Shown here: in pieces, positions 37,088-52,840 of the stretch | Layout: each line of letters starts with the position of its first letter | Numbering within the stretch: position 1 is the stretch's first letter | Assembly (NCBI GenBank): GCA_965222075.1 | Contig: OZ244937.1 | Span: 3,488,001-3,552,000, forward strand | Reading direction: 5' to 3' | DNA length: 64,000 bases | From: Candidatus Latescibacterota bacterium | GTDB taxonomy: Bacteria > Latescibacterota > UBA2968 > GCA-2709665 | Translations under genes and position numbers: made by a program | The notes under the pieces: model-generated | Seen by the model: only the letters and a program-made list of their open reading frames with translations | What the model was told of the DNA's origin: nothing | The model's database searches: none

Positions 37088-37154
37088 CGACCTCCAGCCC
37101 TTTCCATTTCGGATTGTGTATTGCTTCTTTCTCTTTTTTGGCGCCCAACCGCAA

Positions 37155-37445
37155 TTAACTCACCGGCTGTCTCCCCTCAGGCCGTTCCAATTCAACCTTG
37201 AGATCAAGAGCGTGACACACCTTCAGGAAGGTCGTCAAATTACAATTGATCCCATTTTCCACTTTCGACAATTGCTGCTGGGTGATCTTTGCTCTCCTGG
37301 CAACCTCCTTTTGAGAAAGGCCTACCTGCTCTCGCATACGATAGATTTGCAGAGACAGCTCTGTGAGTTGCTTCTCTTCTTCGTAGAATCGCCTGAATCC
37401 TTCATCTTTCAGCTTCTCTTTCAGATGACTTCTAAAGCTCTTCAC
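37155..37445 (-). CDS. XRE-family HTH antitoxin (HigA-like)
   Basis: MREQVGLSQKEVARRAKITQQQLSKVENG; overlaps the toxin 3' end. Confidence 0.88.
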   Translation of the reverse strand: MKSFRSHLKEKLKDEGFRRFYEEEKQLTELSLQIYRMREQVGLSQKEVARRAKITQQQLSKVENGINCNLTTFLKVCHALDLKVELERPEGRQPVS

Positions 37446-37821
37446 CGAGTTCCTCCTCCAATCGCTGCTGATCATATCGAGACAAGAAATCAGATCGATA
37501 CCACCTGGCAAGGTCAATTTCAGATTGCGGCACACGCTGGGTACGTTTCACAAACCCATGGGTCAAGACGATGAAGCCCCTGAAGCGAAAAAAGTAGAGA
37601 ATGCGCACCTGATCACCGGAGAGCTTCAATCTCAGTTCATGGATACCATCTTCCAGAAGGTCCGCATAGGGTCTGGGTAGATTTGGACCTTGTGCTTCCA
37701 ATTGGGCAATCCAGCTGAGCGTTTTAGCCTGATCGCGATCTTTCCGTGCATCCATGAACTCTTGGACGGGACAATGGCCAGTTTCAGCTTCATAGTAGAT
37801 GATGTGCCATTTGCGATCCAT
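37432..37821 (-). CDS. RelE/HigB-superfamily toxin (Gp49-like)
   Basis: CPVQEFM, GPNLPRPY, GIHELR, RILYFF, LTHGFVKRTQRVP. Confidence 0.9.
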   Translation of the reverse strand: MDRKWHIIYYEAETGHCPVQEFMDARKDRDQAKTLSWIAQLEAQGPNLPRPYADLLEDGIHELRLKLSGDQVRILYFFRFRGFIVLTHGFVKRTQRVPQSEIDLARWYRSDFLSRYDQQRLEEELGEEL

Positions 37822-38424: not shown

Positions 38425-38491
38425 CCCCCCCACCGCATCAGCCGTCGCCTGTCGGCTCGGCTTCTGCGACTCCCCCTCAAGGGGGGAGTAA
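38425..38491. repeat. Small palindromic interspersed element
   Basis: CCCCCCCACCGCATCAGCC...GGCTTCTGCG followed by the ACTCCCCC-TCAA-GGGGGGAGT hairpin; supplies the stop codon of the adjacent gene. Confidence 0.6.
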
Positions 38492-39346
38492 TGAGGGGGG
38501 GCCGTGAATTTCCGCCAGGTATCGTGTGACGTTGTGCTCAAGGGGGTAGGAGTAACCCAGATGAGCCCCAACTTCGGACGCCAATCGCCCGAATATTTCG
38601 GCTGTCTTAAACATAGCCTTCCAGTTCTCTTCCCGGTCTGCTCCCGCGAAAGTCGCCTCGATCTCCGACCACAGGTGGGGTTCCAGTTGTTTCTTGAACC
38701 ATCTGCCATAGGCCCCAGGATTTGACTTCCAGCTATTCTTCATCCCGAGATACCAGGCGATCACAGTTTTCAGATAGTGATGATGAAGAGAGTTGTCATG
38801 CATATACTTTGCAAAGAACAACTCGTCCCGGGATAAATACTTCGCTACGTAGGTGATATTCCACCAGAAATGGTGAACAAGCTTCTCGTATTCGGATTCA
38901 GTTGGCTGTTTTGTCCAATACTGAGTGTACGTCGGCGGAACCGCTCCTTGGGTAAGACCATCCTTGTCGACCAGGACGGTATACCCCATGTCGTTTGTAT
39001 AGCCTCCATATGTACTGATATCCTTTTCTATGGCTTCTGGCAACATGATGTGGAAATCAACCCTTGGGGCGTCCTTGAATATCACAAGGCGCCAAACATC
39101 GTTCTCGTCCCCAATAACCGGTTTATACGGTTCGCGGACCAGGACTTCCCCGAATACCTCCAGCCACCCGTCTCCTGCCAGAAATGGCTGTAGATCTTCG
39201 ACATATAGTTCGATGTCATAGTCTGACAAGGCGTCAACTGGTGCATTCGGATTCGCACGAGTGCTGGTAAGGATTGCTACTCGGACGTTCTCGTTATCTT
39301 CTGCCCAGTCCGATACTTCTCTTGCCATGTTTCGTGCATTGTGCAT
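38477..39346 (-). CDS. Aminoglycoside 6-adenylyltransferase (ANT(6)/AadK family)
   Basis: VRVAILTSTRANPNAPVDALSDYDIELYV, VLVDKDG, FWWNITYVAKYLSRDELFFA, GRWFKKQL. Confidence 0.88.
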   Translation of the reverse strand: MHNARNMAREVSDWAEDNENVRVAILTSTRANPNAPVDALSDYDIELYVEDLQPFLAGDGWLEVFGEVLVREPYKPVIGDENDVWRLVIFKDAPRVDFHIMLPEAIEKDISTYGGYTNDMGYTVLVDKDGLTQGAVPPTYTQYWTKQPTESEYEKLVHHFWWNITYVAKYLSRDELFFAKYMHDNSLHHHYLKTVIAWYLGMKNSWKSNPGAYGRWFKKQLEPHLWSEIEATFAGADREENWKAMFKTAEIFGRLASEVGAHLGYSYPLEHNVTRYLAEIHGPPSLLPP

Positions 39347-39393
39347 CCAGCCCTCGGTATATTGGACATTGGTGGGGTGGTGTGTGCGATTTC

Positions 39394-39509
39394 CGCTAAC
39401 GTTTCACGGTTTGCGAACCCCGAGCTCGGCCGCTGAGCCTGTCGAAGCGTGTCGAGGGGTTGCCGAAGGCCAAGGAGCCTGGCGCCGCAGTGCAAATCCG
39501 CTGTTATGC
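39394..39509 (-). mobile_element. Integron attC site 1 (116 bp)
   Basis: Minus strand GCATAAC-AG-CGGATTTGC...GCAAACCG-TGAAAC-GTTAGCG; imperfect palindrome with one bulged base. Confidence 0.8.
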
Positions 39510-39641
39510 ATTGTGCCGCTTGCGATCAGTCAAACCCATCAAGGGGCAGTAATCAGCCATGCAGTTTCCGTTTTTCATGTTTTTCGTCTTTTGGGGGTAT
39601 GGGGACTTCACTTCAGATCCTTCGGCATCATTATTTTCTCG

Positions 39642-40568
39642 TTATCGACGGGCGTATTTCCTGACAAAGGGTTGGTTGACCGTTGTTGAAGTGAGGATAT
39701 GATACCTCGCGGGTTTTCTGAAGGCGTTCCCCCATGTTTCGAGCTTCCTGTACTCTCGCATGGCTTCCAAGTCAAAGTTAGCCAGGTACACACCTTCGTC
39801 TTCTCCTGAACGAACCACCAGATTATTCCTCAGATTCCCGTTTCTAAGATAAACCATCCCATCGAAAGCAACGGATTGCCCTGGCTTTCCTGGTTCCCCC
39901 ACATAATTAGCTAATGCTACTCCAACCATGTTCTCCATTGCCCTGGCCCGAATGATTCCGGTTCTGACTTCATTCATATCGCAAGAGGTCGGTACAATGA
40001 TTAACTCCGCGCCTTTTAGCATCAGGATTCGAGCACTTTCAGGGAATTCCATGTCGTAGCAGATCATAGCCCCGATCTCTACATCGCCTTGTCGCGTATC
40101 TAAGGTGGCAACATAGAAATCATCGCCTGGTGAGCAGGCAGCTTCCAGAGAGAAATCACAAGTATGCACTTTCGCGTACGTCATGACGCGATTTCCGTGG
40201 CGATCAAACAAGGTCGCGGAATTACGTGGTAAATCTGAAGTCGCCTCAAGATACGTTATGGCGATTGCCACTTCTAACTCCTTGGCCAGGTCAGCAAAGC
40301 GCATAACAAACTCACCGTCCGTTGGGATGGCACGGCGTTTCCACGCTTCACGCAGCTCAGGATATCGAGGATGGGATGGATCATAATTTTGATCCCAGAC
40401 TTCATCATGATAAGCCGTGTACCCGATATTCCACATCTCAGGAAACAGGACGAGATCGGCTCCCATAGAAGCCGCCTTCTTACAGAACTCAACTCCCTTG
40501 GCCAGGTTGGCGTGTTGGTCAAATCCGTGGGAGTTCATCTGAAGTAAAGCAACCGTAATCGTGGCCAT
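39642..40568 (-). CDS. Carbon-nitrogen hydrolase (nitrilase superfamily)
   Basis: Glu-Lys-Cys triad: FPEMW, YAKVH, ICYDMEFPE. Confidence 0.93.
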   Translation of the reverse strand: MATITVALLQMNSHGFDQHANLAKGVEFCKKAASMGADLVLFPEMWNIGYTAYHDEVWDQNYDPSHPRYPELREAWKRRAIPTDGEFVMRFADLAKELEVAIAITYLEATSDLPRNSATLFDRHGNRVMTYAKVHTCDFSLEAACSPGDDFYVATLDTRQGDVEIGAMICYDMEFPESARILMLKGAELIIVPTSCDMNEVRTGIIRARAMENMVGVALANYVGEPGKPGQSVAFDGMVYLRNGNLRNNLVVRSGEDEGVYLANFDLEAMREYRKLETWGNAFRKPARYHILTSTTVNQPFVRKYARR

Positions 40569-40582
40569 TTCGTTTTTTCTCT

Positions 40583-40639
40583 CTTTGATGATCCCGCTCA
40601 GGCGCGCTGTCAAACGTCGACTGGAACTCCTGGTTCAAC
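40583..40639 (-). mobile_element. Decayed short attC site (57 bp)
   Basis: Minus strand GTTGAAC-CAGGA-GTTCCAGT-CGAC...GCGCG-CCTGAGC-GGGATC-ATCAAAG; canonical 59-be geometry, but R' reads ATC instead of GTT. Confidence 0.5.
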
Positions 40640-41533
40640 ATCCTCTGCATCGTAACCCGGGTAAATGCTTTGTGCATCGGGTGGTAGCTTCCTGACATGC
40701 TTGAGGAAGGCGAACGCCCTTTCAGTGTCTTCTTCCGGAAATCGGTACCCGTAGTGGTTTCCAACGGACTGAGCGGTCCGAACGAACAATCTCTGGGTCG
40801 CCAGCAGCGACGCCCAGATATCGTCATAAGCGGAGCCGGCGTAGGTGCGCTCAAACTCCCGCCAGTCCTCCGGCTCAAGGTGCTGCTGCAGGTTCTTACC
40901 TTCGCTGCCCAACGATCTCTCGAATCCCTTCGTCACGCCGATGTACCAACCGAGCATCAGGACAAGATCCTCTCGCAGACGTTCTATGTGGCATTTCAGC
41001 AGCGGGAGCTTTCGTCGCCACAAGGTCTTCGGAATATGCGAGCCGAGGGTGAAGCAGAATGTGTTGCAGCAGTCATCATACCACTGCTGCGTGGGCTCTG
41101 TGATGAAGTAGCTTCGTTCGCTCGGATTTGGGAGGTCGGGCAGGAGGCCATCCTTGTCCAGCAGAACCCGGGTCAGGCTATCTGATGGGCGACTCTCCAG
41201 CATTTCGATAGGCAAGAACCCGATATCGATGCGATTGCCGTCCGTGAACTGAACGTTGTAGGTGTAGCGGCCGTCCCCGCAGCCGGGTCGGTAGATCTGA
41301 TCCTCGACCTTTTGAACGAACATAGGAACTCCAAAATAGGGAACAACGCCACTTTCTTCTCTGAATGGTTGGACGTTCGTGACAAAGTAGACAATATCGT
41401 AGTCCCGAAATATGTCCTTCTCCGCGTTCGGGTTGGCCCGAGACCCGTTCATCACGACCACCCGGATGTGTTCATCGGCCTGGGCAAAATCGAGGACTAA
41501 TGCAAGCATTTCTTCTTCGGTACGTGTCTTCAC
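40610..41533 (-). CDS. Second aminoglycoside 6-adenylyltransferase (ANT(6)/AadK family)
   Basis: RTEEEML..VLDFA, IRVVVMNGSRANPN..KDIFRDYDIVYFV, FTDGNRID, VLLDKDG. Confidence 0.9.
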   Translation of the reverse strand: MKTRTEEEMLALVLDFAQADEHIRVVVMNGSRANPNAEKDIFRDYDIVYFVTNVQPFREESGVVPYFGVPMFVQKVEDQIYRPGCGDGRYTYNVQFTDGNRIDIGFLPIEMLESRPSDSLTRVLLDKDGLLPDLPNPSERSYFITEPTQQWYDDCCNTFCFTLGSHIPKTLWRRKLPLLKCHIERLREDLVLMLGWYIGVTKGFERSLGSEGKNLQQHLEPEDWREFERTYAGSAYDDIWASLLATQRLFVRTAQSVGNHYGYRFPEEDTERAFAFLKHVRKLPPDAQSIYPGYDAEDVEPGVPVDV

Positions 41534-41571
41534 CTGATCCTCTCTGCCAACCGGACATAATTGGAAGACAT

Positions 41572-41820
41572 TCACGCTTCGACGGCGTCGGCTATGAACT
41601 TGCGAAATGAGTCGCGGTAATGGGGTTGCGAATCCGCCAGGTCAGGTCGCCACTGACGGGCGGCCATCCAACCCAGAGCAATTTTCGTTGCAGTAACCAG
41701 GTCGGAACCCTCAAGGCGTCTCGGGCCCAGTTCCCGAACTTCTCGTTTATCCTCATCCCATTGTACTTTAACAGGGCCTTCAGTTTCTGTGGGAACCACA
41801 TACGGAGACCCAGACCGCAA
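41572..41820 (-). pseudogene. Short ORF, probably the C-terminal remnant of a truncated gene
   Basis: 82-aa ORF without a clear RBS, ending just upstream of the ANT(6) gene; no recognisable motif. Confidence 0.3.
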
Positions 41821-41923
41821 ACGATCTCATCAGAGTCCCCCTGTAGTGCGCCAGGCGTGCGACCCGGGTGTCTGCTTCATACCTGTATGACCGAGTCACT
41901 TGTACTCAAGAGGTAATCGCAGA

Positions 41924-42826
41924 TCACGCCAGATGCTCCGTCCGCAGTTGCCGCGACCAGTCAAAGTACTCGTCCAGCCCCACCAACTCGAATTCATCGA
42001 CAATATCGGCTGCGGTGCGCTCCACAGTCTCGCTATAGATCACCGAAGTGCCCACCTCCCCGGTCGTGACAATGCGCACGGCCTCGCCGTATTGCCGATG
42101 TATATCGTCGAACCTGGCCCGATTCTTGTCGAGATGCACCACTTCATAGTCCAGATTGATGCGCGCTGTGGCCCAACTCTGATAGTTATTGCTCTGAGCC
42201 AGGGTGGTCCCCTGCGGATCAATAATCGTGCAGGGCGTCCCCCTGTACACCGAGCCGACGAAAAAGGCCTGCACATCCAAAGCCCAGAAGTTCTGCACCA
42301 GCCCGCCGTGGTACATGGAACTGAAGAGCAGCAATTTCGGCTTGAGCTTCTTGTACTGGGCCCGCAATTCCCCAAAGTTCAGATCGAAACAGATCACCCC
42401 ACCCACCGACCCGAATTCGGTCCGGATCAGGGACGCGCCTGGACCTGGACGGGTGCCGTGGTCAAACTCCGGGTAGACTGGAATGTACTTGCGGTAGATA
42501 CCGGCTAATTCCCCCTGCCGATCGAGCAGCCCGAGGACATTGAAGACCGCCCCGCTCTTGCACTCCTTCTGATGCACCGGCACGGTGATATAGCAGCTAT
42601 ACGTCCGGGCTAAGCCAGCCAGTAGCTGAGTAGTCGGCCCCTCTGGCACTTCCTCGTCGCAGGTTCGGCAGATGGTCTCGGGCAGGACGATCAGATCGGG
42701 CCTGGTAGCTCGGGCGACCTGCCCCACCAGGTCCTCCAGGTCCTTGTGGGTTTGCTTCATCACCTCCTGGTCCGCTCCGCTGATCGGGGCGTAGGAAATG
42801 CTCGATACGACGATGTGATTGCTCAT
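41924..42826 (-). CDS. Carbon-nitrogen hydrolase (nitrilase superfamily)
   Basis: VLPET, YRKYIP, ICFDLNF triad; AAGGA RBS. Confidence 0.9.
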   Translation of the reverse strand: MSNHIVVSSISYAPISGADQEVMKQTHKDLEDLVGQVARATRPDLIVLPETICRTCDEEVPEGPTTQLLAGLARTYSCYITVPVHQKECKSGAVFNVLGLLDRQGELAGIYRKYIPVYPEFDHGTRPGPGASLIRTEFGSVGGVICFDLNFGELRAQYKKLKPKLLLFSSMYHGGLVQNFWALDVQAFFVGSVYRGTPCTIIDPQGTTLAQSNNYQSWATARINLDYEVVHLDKNRARFDDIHRQYGEAVRIVTTGEVGTSVIYSETVERTAADIVDEFELVGLDEYFDWSRQLRTEHLA

Positions 42827-42920: not shown

Positions 42921-43241
42921 GACCTACCCCCTATCCCCCTTCCTGAGAGGAAGGGGGAACCCGGATCGGTTGATGAGCGGCTGGATTGGCTGAAGTCATT
43001 TCGATTGATGAAAAAATCCAGACGAAATATCGTGATTGGTCAGCATGTTGTGCTTGAGAAAGTAACGAGAAAGCATCCTGCAAGCACGAGGATTGCAAGT
43101 TTTACGTATTTCGAATGTTGAAATTTGCACGAATTTGGATGGCACTCTCCAATCAGTCAGAGCTTATATAAAACAGTGTCGACGCAACGCTTGGTTCAAT
43201 TCCCCCTCTCCTCGCAGGAGAGGGGGCCGGGGGGAGAGGTC
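42921..43241 (+). mobile_element. Internally deleted DUF559 (Vsr-like endonuclease) gene flanked by C/G hairpin repeats
   Basis: Flanks CCCCCTTCC-TGAGA-GGAAGGGGG and CCCCCTCTCC-TCGCA-GGAGAGGGGG. MKKSRRNIVIGQHVVLEKVTR (from 43008) is joined out of frame to LQARGLQVLRISNVEICTNLDGTLQSV. Confidence 0.65.
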
Positions 43242-44009: not shown

Positions 44010-45431
44010 TCAGTTTTGAGGATCGGGATGGATGTCGGAGGCCAACTCGCGCAGCACCTCGACCGCCAGGAGCACGTCCTCTCTTCGACAGTCGAATTGC
44101 CCGACCTGGAAGCGGATGACGAACTGCCCCTCGTGAATTGTATGCGTCAGGTAGATCCGGCCGTCGTCGTTGACCGCGCGAAGTAGTCGTTCGGTGGCGT
44201 TGCTGGGATTCTCGCCCTCGGGCGCGTACTGGAATGTGAAGAGCGAAAGGCGGCAGTCCGTCGTCACGCGAAAGCCGTCCAGCGATGCAATCGCGGCGGC
44301 GGCCTCCTCGGCCCACGCAATATGGTTCCGGATGCGCTGGCGGAGGTCTTCGAGACCGTGGGCGCGGAGCAGGAACCAGAGCTTGAGGGCCCGGAACCTG
44401 CGCCCCAGGGGGATCGTCCATTCGCTGTAATTGGTAATTTCGGACTGGCCGAGGGTCTGTAGGTAATCCGGATGGATGCCCAGGGTGCGGACCTGCGGTT
44501 CCGGATCCGCGAGAAACTGGATCGAGCAGTCGAACTGCGCGCCGAGCCACTTGTGGGGATTGAAGACGATGCTGTCCGCTTTCTCGACCCCCGACCACAA
44601 CCCCCGTAGCTCGGGGCAGATCATCGCGGAACCGGCCCACGCGGCGTCGACGTGGACGTAGAGATCATACGCTCGCGCCACTTCGATGGCCTGGTCCACC
44701 CTGTCGGACGCGCCGATCGACGTGCCCCCAACGCACAGCACGACGCCGGCCGGAAGGAATCCCGCTGCGCGATCAGCGTCGATCGCCGCGCGGAGCGCCT
44801 CCGGGTCGAGCGCCCAGGAACCATCGGTCGGGACCTTGACGAGATTCCGCTGGCCGATCCCGGCGATTCGTACCGCCTTGTCGATGGACGAGTGGGTCTC
44901 CGGCGAGGCATAGACCCTGAGCTGTTTCTCCCCGGCCATTCCGGAATCGATCCCTCGCCAGCCGAGCGTGCGCTCGCGCATCGTCAGTACAGCGCAGACA
45001 TTGGCCGACGTGGCCGACTCCTGGATAACCCCCTGGAACCCTTCGGGCAGACCGAGCGCCTGGCGCATCCAGTCGACCATCCGTGTCTCAATCTCCGTAG
45101 CCGCGGGCGAGGTCTGCCAGAGCATGCACTGGGCCGCCATCACCGCCGTCAAGTTCTCGGCGATCATCGAAACCGGCGCGGCGTTGGCGCTGAAGTAGGC
45201 GAAAAAGCGCCGGTGTTGCCAGTGCGTCATACCGTCCGGCACAATGCGCTCGAAGTCGGCGAAGATCGTCTCCATGTCTTCCGGCTCTTCCGGCGCCGCC
45301 GCGGGCAGCATCGCGGCGATCTCACCCGGCGCGGTCTGCGCCCGGACGGGCCGCTCCTCCAGCGTGGCCAGGTACTCCGCGCCCCACTGTGCAGCGCGTT
45401 CAGCCCACTGATAGTAGTCTTCTCTTTTCAT
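44010..45431 (-). CDS. Aromatic-L-amino-acid (group II PLP) decarboxylase
   Basis: GMTHWQH..FFAYF, SPAATEIE, HVDAAWAG, NPHKW (PLP lysine), LGRRFRALKLW; GGAGGT RBS directly after the attC R' site. Confidence 0.95.
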   Translation of the reverse strand: MKREDYYQWAERAAQWGAEYLATLEERPVRAQTAPGEIAAMLPAAAPEEPEDMETIFADFERIVPDGMTHWQHRRFFAYFSANAAPVSMIAENLTAVMAAQCMLWQTSPAATEIETRMVDWMRQALGLPEGFQGVIQESATSANVCAVLTMRERTLGWRGIDSGMAGEKQLRVYASPETHSSIDKAVRIAGIGQRNLVKVPTDGSWALDPEALRAAIDADRAAGFLPAGVVLCVGGTSIGASDRVDQAIEVARAYDLYVHVDAAWAGSAMICPELRGLWSGVEKADSIVFNPHKWLGAQFDCSIQFLADPEPQVRTLGIHPDYLQTLGQSEITNYSEWTIPLGRRFRALKLWFLLRAHGLEDLRQRIRNHIAWAEEAAAAIASLDGFRVTTDCRLSLFTFQYAPEGENPSNATERLLRAVNDDGRIYLTHTIHEGQFVIRFQVGQFDCRREDVLLAVEVLRELASDIHPDPQN

Positions 45432-45452
45432 GGGACGGTATGTACACCTCCG

Positions 45453-45554
45453 CTGCAACGTTTTGCCAGTTTGTGACGGCGGCGGAGCGAAGCGGAGCCG
45501 CTGTGCCGAAGGCCGAAGGAGCGAAGCGACTGAAGCAAAAACTGGCTGTTACAC
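45453..45554 (-). mobile_element. Integron attC site 2 (102 bp)
   Basis: Minus strand GTGTAAC-A-GCCAGTTTTTG...CAAACTGGC-AAAAC-GTTGCAG. Confidence 0.85.
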
Positions 45555-45613
45555 GATGGCGCAGGCCCGGGGTAGTTGGGTGGCCTGCCAGGGATGGCAG
45601 GGGGTTGGTTTTT

Positions 45614-45643
45614 TGTAAGAAATCAACCGAAGGAAGCGTCTAA
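45614..45643 (+). promoter_or_regulatory. ECF-type promoter TGTAAG-N17-CGTCTAA
   Basis: Resembles ECF AAC/CGT promoters; lies directly upstream of the sigma ATG at 45648. Confidence 0.55.
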
Positions 45644-45647
45644 TAGG

Positions 45648-46214
45648 ATGAACAACGACCCGAGAAACCCCAGAGATCGTTTAAGAATAATGATCGGATC
45701 AGTTATGGCAGATACCAGAGATGAAGCTCTGTTCAAAGATTTGCTGGCTAATCATACAGGTACCATTCTTAAAGTAGCCCGATCCTTTACCTCAACTCAG
45801 GAAGATATGAACGATCTCTCCCAAGAGATTCTCATTCAGCTTTGGCTGGCCATCCCTTCCTACCAGGAACGGTCAAAACCCTCGACGTGGATATACAGAG
45901 TCGCCTTGAACAAGGCATTGACTTGGCAACGTTCCGAAAAGAAACGTTGGGCACGGTATTCTCCATTATCCGAAATCGTGGATGCCAGGATTTCTGAATC
46001 CAATGAAAAACATGAAATTCTTGGTCAACTTTACAGAGAAATCCGTAAACTCAATAAAATCAATCGATCCCTTATACTGTTGTACCTCGATGGGTTCAGT
46101 TACTCAGAGATGGCCGAAACCCTTGGCATGTCCCAGAACAGCGTCGGAGTTCGACTCAACCGCATCAGAAAACAGCTTTCCGAAAATATGAAAGGAGGCT
46201 CCCATGAACTTTGA
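45648..46214 (+). CDS. ECF RNA polymerase sigma factor
   Basis: DLSQEILIQLW, STWIYRVALN (region 2); LYLDGFSYSEMAETLGMSQNSVGVRLNRIRKQL (region 4); alternative start at 45705. Confidence 0.93.
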   Translation: MNNDPRNPRDRLRIMIGSVMADTRDEALFKDLLANHTGTILKVARSFTSTQEDMNDLSQEILIQLWLAIPSYQERSKPSTWIYRVALNKALTWQRSEKKRWARYSPLSEIVDARISESNEKHEILGQLYREIRKLNKINRSLILLYLDGFSYSEMAETLGMSQNSVGVRLNRIRKQLSENMKGGSHEL

Positions 46215-46821
46215 GGATATCACTAAGATCTGGCAGTATCAGACGAATGAGGCGATTCTAATCAGAAATGAAGCAAGTCTTTTAGATGAAGTACGCAAAC
46301 AATATCGTAGGGGTAAACACTGGCTGATCGGGTTGAACCTATATGTACTGATTGTAGGTGTACCTGGCCTCTGTTTTCTCGGCTGGCTGGGGCTGAAAAC
46401 ATGGCCAAACTTCAAAGCCGTATTTCCAGTTGCATTCGGACTTCTTTTCACAACAGTCATACTTACCCTTTTTGTTTCAACCCGACGACAAAGAGTTCGC
46501 GAGCAGAGCTTTGGGAGTTCAGTAAAGGCCAGGATTGAATGTTTACTCTCCCAAGCTAATCACTGGGTCTGGTTACTTCAAGCTTACCTCAGGTGGATCT
46601 TTCCTGCTGGAATCACCGTATGGATCTTGGGCGTGACATGGTGGGGATTAGTCAAAGGACTCCCACTTTGGGGTACTGCTTATATTCTTTTCTGTTCACT
46701 TGGATTCTGTGCGATATACTGGTCTTTTCAACGGATTTACCAAAAGAAATTCCTTCCTCGCAAGCGAGTGCTCGAAGACCTGCTTCGCAGCATCGAAAGC
46801 ACTGGCGAGCACGATGCATAA
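46204..46821 (+). CDS. Four-TM putative anti-sigma factor
   Basis: MNFEDITKIWQ N-terminus, four hydrophobic segments, overlaps the sigma stop, AAGGAGG RBS. Confidence 0.75.
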   Translation: MNFEDITKIWQYQTNEAILIRNEASLLDEVRKQYRRGKHWLIGLNLYVLIVGVPGLCFLGWLGLKTWPNFKAVFPVAFGLLFTTVILTLFVSTRRQRVREQSFGSSVKARIECLLSQANHWVWLLQAYLRWIFPAGITVWILGVTWWGLVKGLPLWGTAYILFCSLGFCAIYWSFQRIYQKKFLPRKRVLEDLLRSIESTGEHDA

Positions 46822-46895
46822 ACAGACTCCTATGACATTTACTTTCTGTTTTTAGGCGGGCCAGGACGGCCGCCTTTGTTTTGGCCTGCGCTTTC

Positions 46896-46984
46896 GTGTA
46901 ACGTTCCCGCAATTCACGAAGCTGCGTAGCAGCTTTGTGGCGTAGGGCGCGAAGCGACCGGAGCCCGTGAATCGCGTGTTAAGC
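46896..46984 (-). mobile_element. Integron attC site 3 (89 bp)
   Basis: Minus strand GCTTAAC-A-CGCGATTCACG...CGTGAATTGCG-GGAAC-GTTACAC. Confidence 0.85.
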
Positions 46985-47036
46985 GCTGGTACGGCGCGGG
47001 GTGGTTATGGTCTTCCTCGCCCGGCCGAGAGCGCGC

Positions 47037-50879: not shown

Positions 50880-51016
50880 TGGTTGCTGACGGTCCATTTC
50901 GTAAGTTCGTGTGACATTCCCTTGGTATCCTTCCGTGACTCAAAAATGCAAAGCGCATAGCGTGAAAAGGCTTCTGTGATGCTTTGCGCCTTGCGATCTG
51001 CGCTTTGCGATCCGAC

Positions 51017-52840
51017 ATGGACGCATCCGATCCCAGCCTCATCCGCCGTACCCTGAGCGGCGATGCCGATGCCTTCGGCCAGCTTGTCGATCGCTACAAG
51101 GAGGCGGTCTACGGCGCCGCGTATGCCCGCCTCGGCAACTTCCAGGATGCCCAGGACATCGCCCAGGAGGCCTTCATCCAGGCCTACCGGTGCCTCGCCT
51201 CCCTGCAAACACACGGCCGGTTTGCAAGCTGGCTCTATGCCATCGTCTGTAACCTCTGCCGCGACCACTTCCGCACCCGCCGTGAAACGCTGCCCTTAGA
51301 AGAGGGGGCGTCCCTCGGCGCGTCCGATCCCGCCGACGAGCACGACCGCCGCGCCCTCCACCGGCGCATCCAGCGCGCCATCGCCGCCCTCTCCGACACC
51401 CACCGTGAAACCGTCACCCTCTACTACATCAACGGCTACACCTGCGACGAGGTCGGCCGCTTCTTAGACGTCCCCACCGGCACGGTCAAACGCCGCCTCT
51501 TCGACGCTCGCAAACAACTCAAAAAGGAGATGACCGACATGGTCCGCGACATGTTCGACGCCCACAAACTCCCGCCCAATTTCCGCAAGGTCGTCATTGA
51601 CGGGGGGGCCTTAGACCCCAAATCCGACACGCCTCGCCTCCACATCCGAGACCGCAAACGGCGGGGCTTTCCCATCGAAACGGGGGACTTCCAGGCCACA
51701 GCGATCTATATGCATCTGCAAAAGGATCTGCCGCCGCGCCCGATCACCTACGATCTGTTTCACGGGATCTGCAGCGCCTTCGGCATCGTCCTCGACGGCA
51801 TCGGCATCACAAAATATAGAAATCGCTACCGGGCGGACGTTACCTTCACGAGGGGCAAACAGTCGATCACCCTCGAAGCCGACCCCGGTGACGCCGTAGC
51901 CCTGGCAATCCGCTTCAACGCCCCGGTTTACGCAGACGAAAGCCTCTTAAAAGGCACGATCTTCCGGCGCCCCAAAAAGGCTCCGATGAAACTGCAGAGG
52001 CAGAAACCGCGCAAACGGTCTTCAATTCAGATCGCCGAAAATTCACCCTTCGCCCTGGTCGACAACTCAGGCGATAAAATCGAAAAAGCACAGATCGTCG
52101 TCAGTGTGCAGCGGCCGGCATCGCCGCCCTCCGAACGGACGCGTGCGCGTCGTATCTCAAATCCGGGAACCCTGCTATCCATCCAAATGGCCAGCGTGGC
52201 ACTGGAACCCAACTCCCGGCGTCCTCTCATCTGGCTGGCGGATAAAGAAAAGAGAACACACCTCCGCATCGTCATTGGCAACTACGAAGTGGGTTCCATC
52301 GCTTCTGCGCTTCCCAAAGCCATATTAAAATTGCCCGGTGGCGTAAAGGGGAAGACCACCCGGGACAGAGGATGGGCGTATGACCTGTTAAAAACTGTCC
52401 TGGACACCTTTGGTATCGTCCACGACCGAGCGGTCATCGACCTGCTCCACAGCGACACGTTCTACGCCTTCAGTTTCTTCCGCCGGGGCAAAACCGTCAG
52501 ACGGCTCGACACACGCCCCAGCGACGCCATCGCCTTATCGCTTCGTACCGGTGCGGAAATCGAAATCCACAAAACGGTTCTGGAGCAGGCCGGACTCGAT
52601 AGACACAAGATGCAAGAATTGCAGGAAAAAAACGGAAAAGAAAAAACAAAGGAACGACGGGTTGAAGTGCCTTACATTCTCAAGCGCGGCGACAAATTCC
52701 GTTTTGCGATCAAATCCTGCCGCAAGTTTACGTGGGAAAGCAGCCATCCGTCCATCGCCTCCGTCACCCCGGACGGCGTTGTGGAGGCGTACAAAGAGGG
52801 CAACGCGACCATCACCGCCACCTGGGTAGAAAAAAAGTAG
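51017..52840 (+). CDS. ECF sigma factor fused to two bifunctional nuclease (DUF151/BFN) domains and an Ig-like (Big_2) tail
   Basis: DAQDIAQEAF, SWLYAI, GTVKRRLFDARKQL; PRPITYDLF...ADPGDAVALAIR; DTFYA...LDTRPSDAIALSLR; TWESSHPSIASVTPDGVVEAYKEGNATITAT. Confidence 0.85.
   Translation: MDASDPSLIRRTLSGDADAFGQLVDRYKEAVYGAAYARLGNFQDAQDIAQEAFIQAYRCLASLQTHGRFASWLYAIVCNLCRDHFRTRRETLPLEEGASLGASDPADEHDRRALHRRIQRAIAALSDTHRETVTLYYINGYTCDEVGRFLDVPTGTVKRRLFDARKQLKKEMTDMVRDMFDAHKLPPNFRKVVIDGGALDPKSDTPRLHIRDRKRRGFPIETGDFQATAIYMHLQKDLPPRPITYDLFHGICSAFGIVLDGIGITKYRNRYRADVTFTRGKQSITLEADPGDAVALAIRFNAPVYADESLLKGTIFRRPKKAPMKLQRQKPRKRSSIQIAENSPFALVDNSGDKIEKAQIVVSVQRPASPPSERTRARRISNPGTLLSIQMASVALEPNSRRPLIWLADKEKRTHLRIVIGNYEVGSIASALPKAILKLPGGVKGKTTRDRGWAYDLLKTVLDTFGIVHDRAVIDLLHSDTFYAFSFFRRGKTVRRLDTRPSDAIALSLRTGAEIEIHKTVLEQAGLDRHKMQELQEKNGKEKTKERRVEVPYILKRGDKFRFAIKSCRKFTWESSHPSIASVTPDGVVEAYKEGNATITATWVEKK

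Follow-up and report, generated by a model that had tools for sequence, protein, structure and literature searches.

Positions 45459-46901 of the 64,000-nt stretch analysed here (the window, positions 3,488,001-3,552,000 of contig OZ244937.1 in assembly GCA_965222075.1, the chromosome of Candidatus Latescibacterota bacterium, assembled as one 5.36-Mb contig) form, as we hold with good confidence, an integron-type cassette in an array resembling a cluster of attC sites lacking integrase (CALIN), the cargo of which, antisense to the array, is a self-contained, insulated two-gene operon of foreign origin encoding an extracytoplasmic function (ECF) sigma factor and a membrane partner. An earlier reading of the sequence (the original prediction) had proposed at this place an inverted, mobile and autoregulated ECF sigma/anti-sigma cassette that could rewire host genes. 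On the plus strand the cargo is ordered as an insulating hairpin, a promoter, the sigma gene, the gene of a four-helix inner-membrane protein that overlaps it by 11 nt, and an intrinsic terminator, and its features are the following.

45459-46901 (-): cassette proper, 1443 bp; its top strand runs from TTACAC... at 46901 to G45459 in its own R' box; limits set by the AAC/GTT anchors
45459-45557 (-): the cassette's own attC; R'' box 45549-45555, L boxes 45539-45546 and 45465-45472, R' G at 45459; nhmmer E 5.5e-12
46895-46987 (-): attC of the upstream (tautomerase) cassette; nhmmer E 2.4e-11; fold -21.5 kcal/mol with paired end boxes
45584-45614 (+): terminator-like hairpin before the promoter; CCTGCCA/TGGCAGG at 45584-45601 and a T-rich run; 7 pairs, 5 of them G-C; -13.3 kcal/mol, z -1.19, weak alone
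45615-45645 (+): ECF-type promoter; -35 TGTAAG at 45615-45620, 17-nt spacer, -10 CGTCTAAT at 45638-45645
45705-46214 (+): ECF sigma factor gene; 169 aa from ATG 45705, with in-frame ATGs at 45648 and 45687 as possible alternative starts
46204-46821 (+): putative anti-sigma factor gene; 205 aa with four hydrophobic helices; 11-nt overlap with the end of the sigma gene
46856-46889 (+): intrinsic-terminator-like hairpin and T run, after the operon and before the R box; 14 pairs; -21.9 kcal/mol, z -2.67

attC sites, crossover footprint and array direction

The segment is bounded by two copies of an imperfect-palindrome repeat of about 100 nt, detected by nhmmer three times in the window (39394-39512, 45456-45557 and 46895-46987, with 73.1, 66.8 and 57.9 bits, respectively, under the covariance model R1). 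On the plus strand the copies start with ...TAAC-GTT... and finish with ...TGTTA..., and they fold into a long imperfect hairpin with internal GCGAAGC-type loops. Iterated nhmmer searches seeded with the three window copies brought this attC-type family to 57 sites in the genome, grouped in clusters at 0.965-0.982, 3.447-3.471, 3.527-3.535 (the window), 4.159-4.175 and 5.295-5.300 Mb, plus a few singletons. It was this iteration that solved detection, a stricter pattern-plus-fold attC scan having returned zero sites and its looser version the right-hand site alone; a more permissive scan gave no fourth attC site in the window, where Rfam at the gathering threshold found two tRNAs and nothing else. 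The family is lineage-wide in Latescibacterota, being present in 29 of 41 related genomes (this one counted) with a maximum of 61 sites per genome; the genomes that we labelled G040, G041, G056 and G058 are among its bearers.

The original prediction had rested on two 9-mers, GTTACACGA at 45548-45556 and TCGTGTAAC at 46894-46902, interpreted as the R'/R'' complementarity expected when a cassette circularises. Both were found at exactly these positions, they are exact reverse complements, and they correspond to the inner R boxes of the two flanking attC-type repeats (45456-45557 and 46895-46987); moreover, such complementarity is a property of the whole repeat family. Integron crossover takes place at G|TT, and the first six bases of a cassette are the rest of its own R' box, so that they should complement its own R'' box at the far end. 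We scored this match over the six variable positions after GTT, using 39 full-length sites in plus orientation (five more were skipped for want of a clear AAC/GTT anchor). The mean match was 5.0 for adjacent inner-box pairs, with 15 of the 31 perfect, as against 3.1 for the two boxes of one attC (n = 39, one perfect) and 3.05 for non-adjacent box pairs (n = 1444, 1.2% perfect). The inner boxes of the sigma cassette agreed at 6/6 variable positions, or 9/9 counting the fixed bases. Perfect inner-box complementarity marks cassettes in this genome and, given a 9/9 match here and perfect matches in 15 of 31 adjacent pairs versus 1.2% of non-adjacent ones, the central structural claim of the original prediction is right. 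Joining the ends in silico, as it had suggested, produced a circular-junction attC with a perfect R stem and a fold of -25.8 kcal/mol, 7.2 better than the -18.6 kcal/mol obtained in array context.

The limits needed a correction. The span first proposed, 45548-46902, is the stretch between the complementary boxes and omits about 89 bp of the cassette's own attC. The R' box of the tautomerase-cassette attC lies at 46896-46902 (GTTACAC, minus strand), and crossover between 46902 and 46901 gives the first bases of the sigma cassette, which therefore extends over 45459-46901. The segment is bounded by attC sites and carries the crossover footprint, two features of an integron cassette.

The top strand of the array is the minus strand of the window, and both genes of the sigma cassette are antisense to it. 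Since the end boxes are symmetric, complementarity alone fits either strand, and the 9-bp match is equally compatible with a plus-strand array top, in which case the sigma operon, as cassette 45550-46978, would alone have the normal orientation, and the genes of almost all other cassettes would be inverted. We regard that arrangement as highly improbable. In 39 of 44 inter-attC intervals the longest open reading frame (ORF) lies opposite to the attC-model orientation, and two of the five exceptions are shadow ORFs over Pfam-supported genes of the opposite strand (GNAT, Peptidase_M55), leaving a 518-aa familyless ORF that shares its interval with an opposite-strand sulfotransferase, a 57-aa ORF and the sigma cassette itself. 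The available text of Nivina et al. 2016 (PMC5027507) describes attC bottom strands as purine-rich and more stable, with GAA in their loops. The window plus strand shows this bottom-strand pattern: it is the stabler strand in 34 of 39 sites (mean -1.66 kcal/mol), is purine-rich in 37 of 39, and has CGAAG 52 times versus none on the other strand. Moreover, the adjoining cassette for a pyridoxal-phosphate (PLP)-dependent decarboxylase (44010-45432, minus) has its ribosome-binding site (GGAGGTG) and ATG within 26 nt of the minus-strand R' box, and three clusters have truncated IntI/XerA-like recombinase fragments past one end, the end where a minus-strand array should have them. A plus-strand top would agree better with the unpaired attC bases: in both flanking sites the extra ones (5 nt vs 1 nt) are on the AAC arm of the presumed bottom strand, that is, on the plus-strand 5' arm, as in a canonical top strand, whereas the same paper, in the part available, places canonical extrahelical bases on the arm opposite the bottom-strand AAC.

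With the minus strand as array top, the term 'inverted cassette' is accurate for the two genes, which face against the array, and not for the cassette as a whole: its attC shares the orientation of the neighbouring attCs, so the cargo is inverted and the cassette is not.

An alignment of 23 attC sites of the genome also showed an ATG (window plus strand) conserved 7 nt outside the left end box in nine of them. A start of cassette genes directly after the R' box was considered and dropped, because the conserved ATG is on the plus strand; it reads as ATG on the coding strand in the palindromic CATG cases alone.

The sigma factor, its promoter and its membrane partner

By its domains the first gene is an ECF (group 4) sigma factor, with Pfam matches to Sigma70_r2 (8.4e-15) and Sigma70_r4_2 (6e-12), none to region 3, and 90.6 bits for NCBIfam TIGR02937 (cut-off 42.9). 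Its placement in a named ECF group, which the original prediction had called for, yielded no assignment: none of the NCBIfam subfamily or equivalog models reached its cut-off (TIGR02989, for example, gave 72.3 vs 124.55), and the portion of the Casas-Pastor et al. 2021 supplement that was searched contained no group description with a TGTAAG motif. Homologues of 161-180 aa align to ATG 45705, and the copy of this sigma factor in the protein collection has 169 aa, so that ATG 45648 is probably not the start codon.

The candidate promoter (TGTAAG-N17-CGTCTAA) is present at 45615-45644, and comparison with homologous loci strengthened it considerably. TGTAAG was found within 130 nt upstream of 57 of 79 sigma genes (the window included), and the bipartite motif TGTAA[GT]-N16-18-nn[ACT]C[ACT]AnT in 57 of 78 homologue upstream regions (the window excluded); no region had it on the reverse strand (0 of 78), and 200 shuffles averaged 0.18, with 2 as the maximum. 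Among homologues the -10 words include TTACCAAT, TCACTATT and CGACTAAT, and the CGTCTAAT of the window recurs at one further locus (L069). Self-regulated ECF operons typically have such a conserved bipartite promoter before the sigma gene, and the autoregulation proposed earlier would follow from it. As to its position 'just before the ATG', the -10 does end 2 nt before ATG 45648, whereas homologues place the start at 45705, 59 nt beyond the -10; in the homologues themselves the -10 ends 22-24 nt before the start codon. Translation would begin at 45705 or, on a leaderless transcript, possibly at 45648. The downstream hairpin was confirmed at 46856-46889 with its T run, and the hairpin upstream of the promoter probably insulates the operon from plus-strand read-through.

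The second gene encodes a membrane protein with hydrophobic segments at residues 41-59, 73-91, 132-150 and 153-171, and its lysines and arginines cluster at both termini and in the middle loop, so that nearly all of its non-membrane mass should be cytoplasmic. It had no match in Pfam or NCBIfam, its best PDB sequence E-value was 0.052, and it lacks both a recognisable anti-sigma domain and the HxxxCxxC zinc motif, its only invariant N-terminal residues being M1 and W10. An exhaustive HMMER search (E <= 0.001) defined a family of 89 representatives, nearly all of about 200 aa, colinear and with an invariant W10, a few of which have a C-terminal Beta-lactamase-family domain. We then considered 80 genome loci with sigma homologues at 39-52% identity, mostly from Planctomycetota, Verrucomicrobiota and Hydrogenedentota: in 70 of them a gene of this family lies directly 3' of the sigma gene on the same strand, and some of the other ten are on short contigs. 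In two of the homologous loci (L064 and L067) the start/stop overlap of the pair is identical to that in the window. A protein atlas returned unnamed clusters only.

A structural model of the complex supports binding between the two proteins, with a predicted contact that spans sigma regions 2 and 4. The highest of three controls was 0.00, and three runs of the pair gave a median score of 0.73, a mark attained by 116 of 157 solved complexes and by 2 of 215 mismatched pairs; these counts are only a rough calibration with our own alignments, which are not of the calibrated kind, and the score may reflect resemblance to solved sigma/anti-sigma complexes. The runs shared at least 86% of contacts, with a partner pLDDT (predicted local distance difference test) of at least 73, and the modelled interface sets membrane-protein residues 1-21 against sigma residues 18-23, 102-109, 128-129 and 155-166. 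Anti-sigma genes are usually at the +1 position according to the portion of Casas-Pastor et al. 2021 (PMC7826278) available. Thus, of the original 'sigma/anti-sigma' pair, the ECF sigma factor is confirmed and the second gene is plausibly an anti-sigma factor, given the pairing in 70 of 80 loci and the complex model.

The membrane protein might instead be a co-transcribed target or a positive modulator similar to RseC/MucC, with the sigma factor controlled in some other way. The lack of a known anti-sigma Pfam domain, of a zinc motif and of a PDB sequence relative would fit such a role, as would the weak, below-cut-off RseC_MucC matches (E 2.6e-4 to 1e-3) given by fused homologues. These matches are, however, confined to the hydrophobic hairpin; the gene occupies with translational overlap the place usual for anti-sigma genes, and the model inserts the conserved N-terminal helix between sigma regions 2 and 4. 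We consider this alternative unlikely, while giving it some weight.

If the membrane protein is an anti-sigma factor, its N terminus, middle loop and C terminus would lie in the cytoplasm, and the helix at its N terminus, which spans roughly residues 1-21 and includes the invariant W10, would wedge between regions 2 and 4, so that the sigma factor would be kept inactive at the membrane until a membrane or envelope signal frees it. Once free, it would transcribe from its own promoter in a positive autoregulatory loop; no further target promoter is visible in this host. The earlier suggestion that the module could rewire host genes found no support in the motif counts: the family motif has two occurrences in the genome, one of them its own site, vs 2-4 in shuffled genomes, a variant closer to the window sequence has three vs 2-3, and a complete Lacipirellula genome with a homologue contains the motif a single time, at the homologous sigma gene. 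There is no sign, at the level of promoter motifs, of any target of this sigma family other than its own operon. A 194-nt contig from an RNA library falls within the membrane-protein gene with zero differences, and is informative on neither strand nor transcription.

Origin of the cargo and mobility of the cassette

The two genes are AT-richer than their surroundings, as originally noted, with a GC content of 44.7% (sigma gene) and 45.5% (membrane-protein gene) versus 59.3% for the genome and 65% for the adjoining decarboxylase gene. The membrane family was found in 2 of 168 genomes of the phylum, and neither in a same-genus genome (94% complete) nor in 21 same-family genomes; elsewhere it is spread over Planctomycetota, Verrucomicrobiota, Hydrogenedentota and other phyla. 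On account of this composition and distribution the cargo is of foreign, lower-GC origin, and the cassette probably derives from an operon in the chromosome of a bacterium similar to the Planctomycetota-Verrucomicrobiota group. The closest pair (64% and 59% identity) is on a 1532-bp contig. A search of genome contigs with the membrane protein alone found no relative and a 40-row alignment was too diverse, and a 4-row alignment matched two short metagenome contigs (L064 and L065) that carry the gene pair and no attC of this family.

A single other genome of the phylum has the pair; it is of the same order, and the locus is L067 (G063:C81:69099-72767), where the bipartite motif also precedes the pair. 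There the pair lies beside a HigA-like helix-turn-helix gene and converges on a 254-aa gene with no spacer between them, and the locus has no attC of this family.

Several results weigh against an integron-type cassette with a regulatory operon as cargo. In addition to the unexpected arm of the unpaired attC bases, the 59 nt between the -10 and ATG 45705 and the caution attached to the complex score, a search of the genome for integron integrases gave nothing above the TIGR02249 cut-off (best 93 bits vs 265). A relative (G042) does encode a bona fide IntI, with no attC site of this family closer than about 18 kb. Finally, attC sites of this family were found in 0 of 83 homologue loci with the covariance model R1, which is specific to the lineage, so that other attC types are possible there; the search for attC-flanked homologous pairs was thus negative within that scope. 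A generic hairpin detector was tried on the same question and set aside as uninformative, with hits on both flanks in 2 of 71 loci and in 7 of 71 in-gene control stretches, and with the left site of the window missed.

A CALIN is defined in the portion of the IntegronFinder paper available as a cluster of attC sites lacking an integrase. In this genome only truncated IntI/XerA-like fragments were found, near three attC clusters, and for lack of an intact integrase the array is CALIN-like and not a complete integron. Across the 41 related genomes, an integron integrase above the curated cut-off was found in only two. One related genome (G059) encodes, 5 kb from its array, a 333-aa IntI/XerA-like recombinase (214 bits vs the cut-off of 265, above its scores for XerC and XerD), and the recombinase fragment of the present genome is of the same kind.

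Assembled contigs from four public runs of four studies contained no excision joint across the cassette, contigs being unable to show rare joints. The cassette was whole in two runs from two studies, with the same neighbours in both, and contigs ended at the cassette ends, as expected of repeats. The statement that the module 'moves as a cassette' agrees with its structure and found no support in the integrase search, the contigs and the 0 of 83 homologue loci; the most economical reading is that the operon was taken up into the cassette pool of this lineage and now lies in an array unable to move it unless an integrase comes from elsewhere.

The same observations could describe a fossil, namely an ordinary chromosomal or horizontally acquired operon that has two decayed attC sites on its flanks by chance, without ever having moved as a cassette. 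The missing integrase, the presence in the window of only three detectable attC sites with several intervening genes lacking any, the ordinary chromosomal contexts of homologues elsewhere and the identical neighbours in two studies would all suit this explanation. It would leave to coincidence, however, that the segment begins with bases complementary to its own R'' box at 9/9 positions, a G|TT crossover footprint seen in only 1.2% of unrelated box pairs, that the segment ends exactly at the boxes with a full-length attC included, and that the operon is compact and insulated at both ends. We thus judge a fossil improbable and retain the integron-type cassette as the preferred reading.

Relation to known systems and neighbouring features

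Integron cassettes are usually viewed as promoterless, single-function, plug-and-play genes, and the known promoter-bearing antisense cassettes are mostly toxin-antitoxin pairs, some of those in Vibrio being inverted in the array and antisense as here. In the present cassette Pfam gives sigma domains only, in the first gene, and nothing in the second, so that no toxin-antitoxin pair is recognised. Similarly to the toxin-antitoxin cassettes of Vibrio sedentary chromosomal integrons, as described in the available portions of PMC11023631 and bioRxiv 10.1101/2022.08.03.502626, the cargo is a two-gene operon with its own promoter, independent of an array promoter; unlike them, it consists of a transcription-initiation factor and a membrane partner in place of toxin and antidote. 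A complete, insulated and self-regulated sigma/anti-sigma circuit in a cassette would mean that regulatory modules can enter the cassette pool, and the case allows one to ask how such a module behaves in a host without matching promoters.

A bolder, and in our view very unlikely, extension is that sigma/anti-sigma pairs can be packaged and stockpiled as integron cassettes and act as toxin-antitoxin cassettes do, an imbalance of the pair penalising its loss and thereby stabilising silent neighbours. The cost of imbalance would come from free sigma factor competing for core RNA polymerase, and a pair moved to a host with matching promoters would install there a ready-made membrane-stress circuit.

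The array shares with sedentary integrons and CALINs its imperfect palindromes of about 100 nt with ...AAC and GTT... end boxes, units of mostly one co-oriented gene, the crossover footprint that ties the start of a unit to its own R'' box and, as regards CALINs, the presence of several integrase-less clusters in one genome. It differs in that its sites are sequence-conserved and lineage-specific, with the 5-nt vs 1-nt unpaired spacer on the unexpected arm, and in that the nearest recombinases are IntI/XerA-like and below curated cut-offs.

The operon itself resembles RpoE-RseA, SigW-RsiW and CnrH-CnrY (1or7, 5wuq, 4cxf) in having a sigma factor with regions 2 and 4 only, a partner at +1 that is predicted to wedge between them, and a conserved self-directed bipartite promoter. 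In contrast to those systems, the partner lacks a recognised anti-sigma domain, has next to no extracytoplasmic loop and is predicted to touch the sigma factor through one short N-terminal helix. The -35 is TGTAAG and not GGAAC, the common ECF type. Four-helix anti-sigma factors are reported for 3 of 157 ECF groups in the available portion of Casas-Pastor et al. 2021 (PMC7826278); the membrane family was not placed among these groups in the part of the supplement searched, and its group may already be described. In the searched literature we found no report of a sigma/anti-sigma integron cassette, sigma factors being mentioned only in passing, and no paper linking integrons or attC with Latescibacterota. 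As side results, the analysis defines an uncharacterised family of four-helix ECF partners of about 200 aa, promoter included, and documents a lineage-wide attC family of Latescibacterota.

The remaining observations concern the rest of the array and window. The PLP-decarboxylase cassette (482 aa) has two counterparts of equal ORF length (482 aa) among the intervals of the large upstream array (genome positions 3457607-3459118 and 3468498-3470009); its contig depth is about three times that of the sigma cassette, and no attC is detectable after the window copy. At the left edge of the variable region there is a Gp49/HigB-like toxin gene (37432-37821, minus; PF05973, 1.3e-21); the stretch 37116-37574 beside it had no family match, and no attC was detected around 37116-37821. 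Two genes of the streptomycin adenylyltransferase family (PF04439) follow at 38477-39346 and 40610-41575, the latter overlapping a carbon-nitrogen hydrolase gene by 4 nt, and a second carbon-nitrogen hydrolase gene is at 41924-42826, with one detectable attC (39394-39512) across the whole of 38477-42826. GC-rich CCCCCT...AGGGGG hairpin repeats, unlike the attC family, are intergenic in the array at 42930-42960 and 43200-43240. Outside the cassette, a single 618-aa ORF at 50984-52840 (+) joins, in an unusual fusion, two bifunctional-nuclease (BFN) stretches and a C-terminal Big_2 domain to ECF sigma regions 2 and 4 (residues 34-181).

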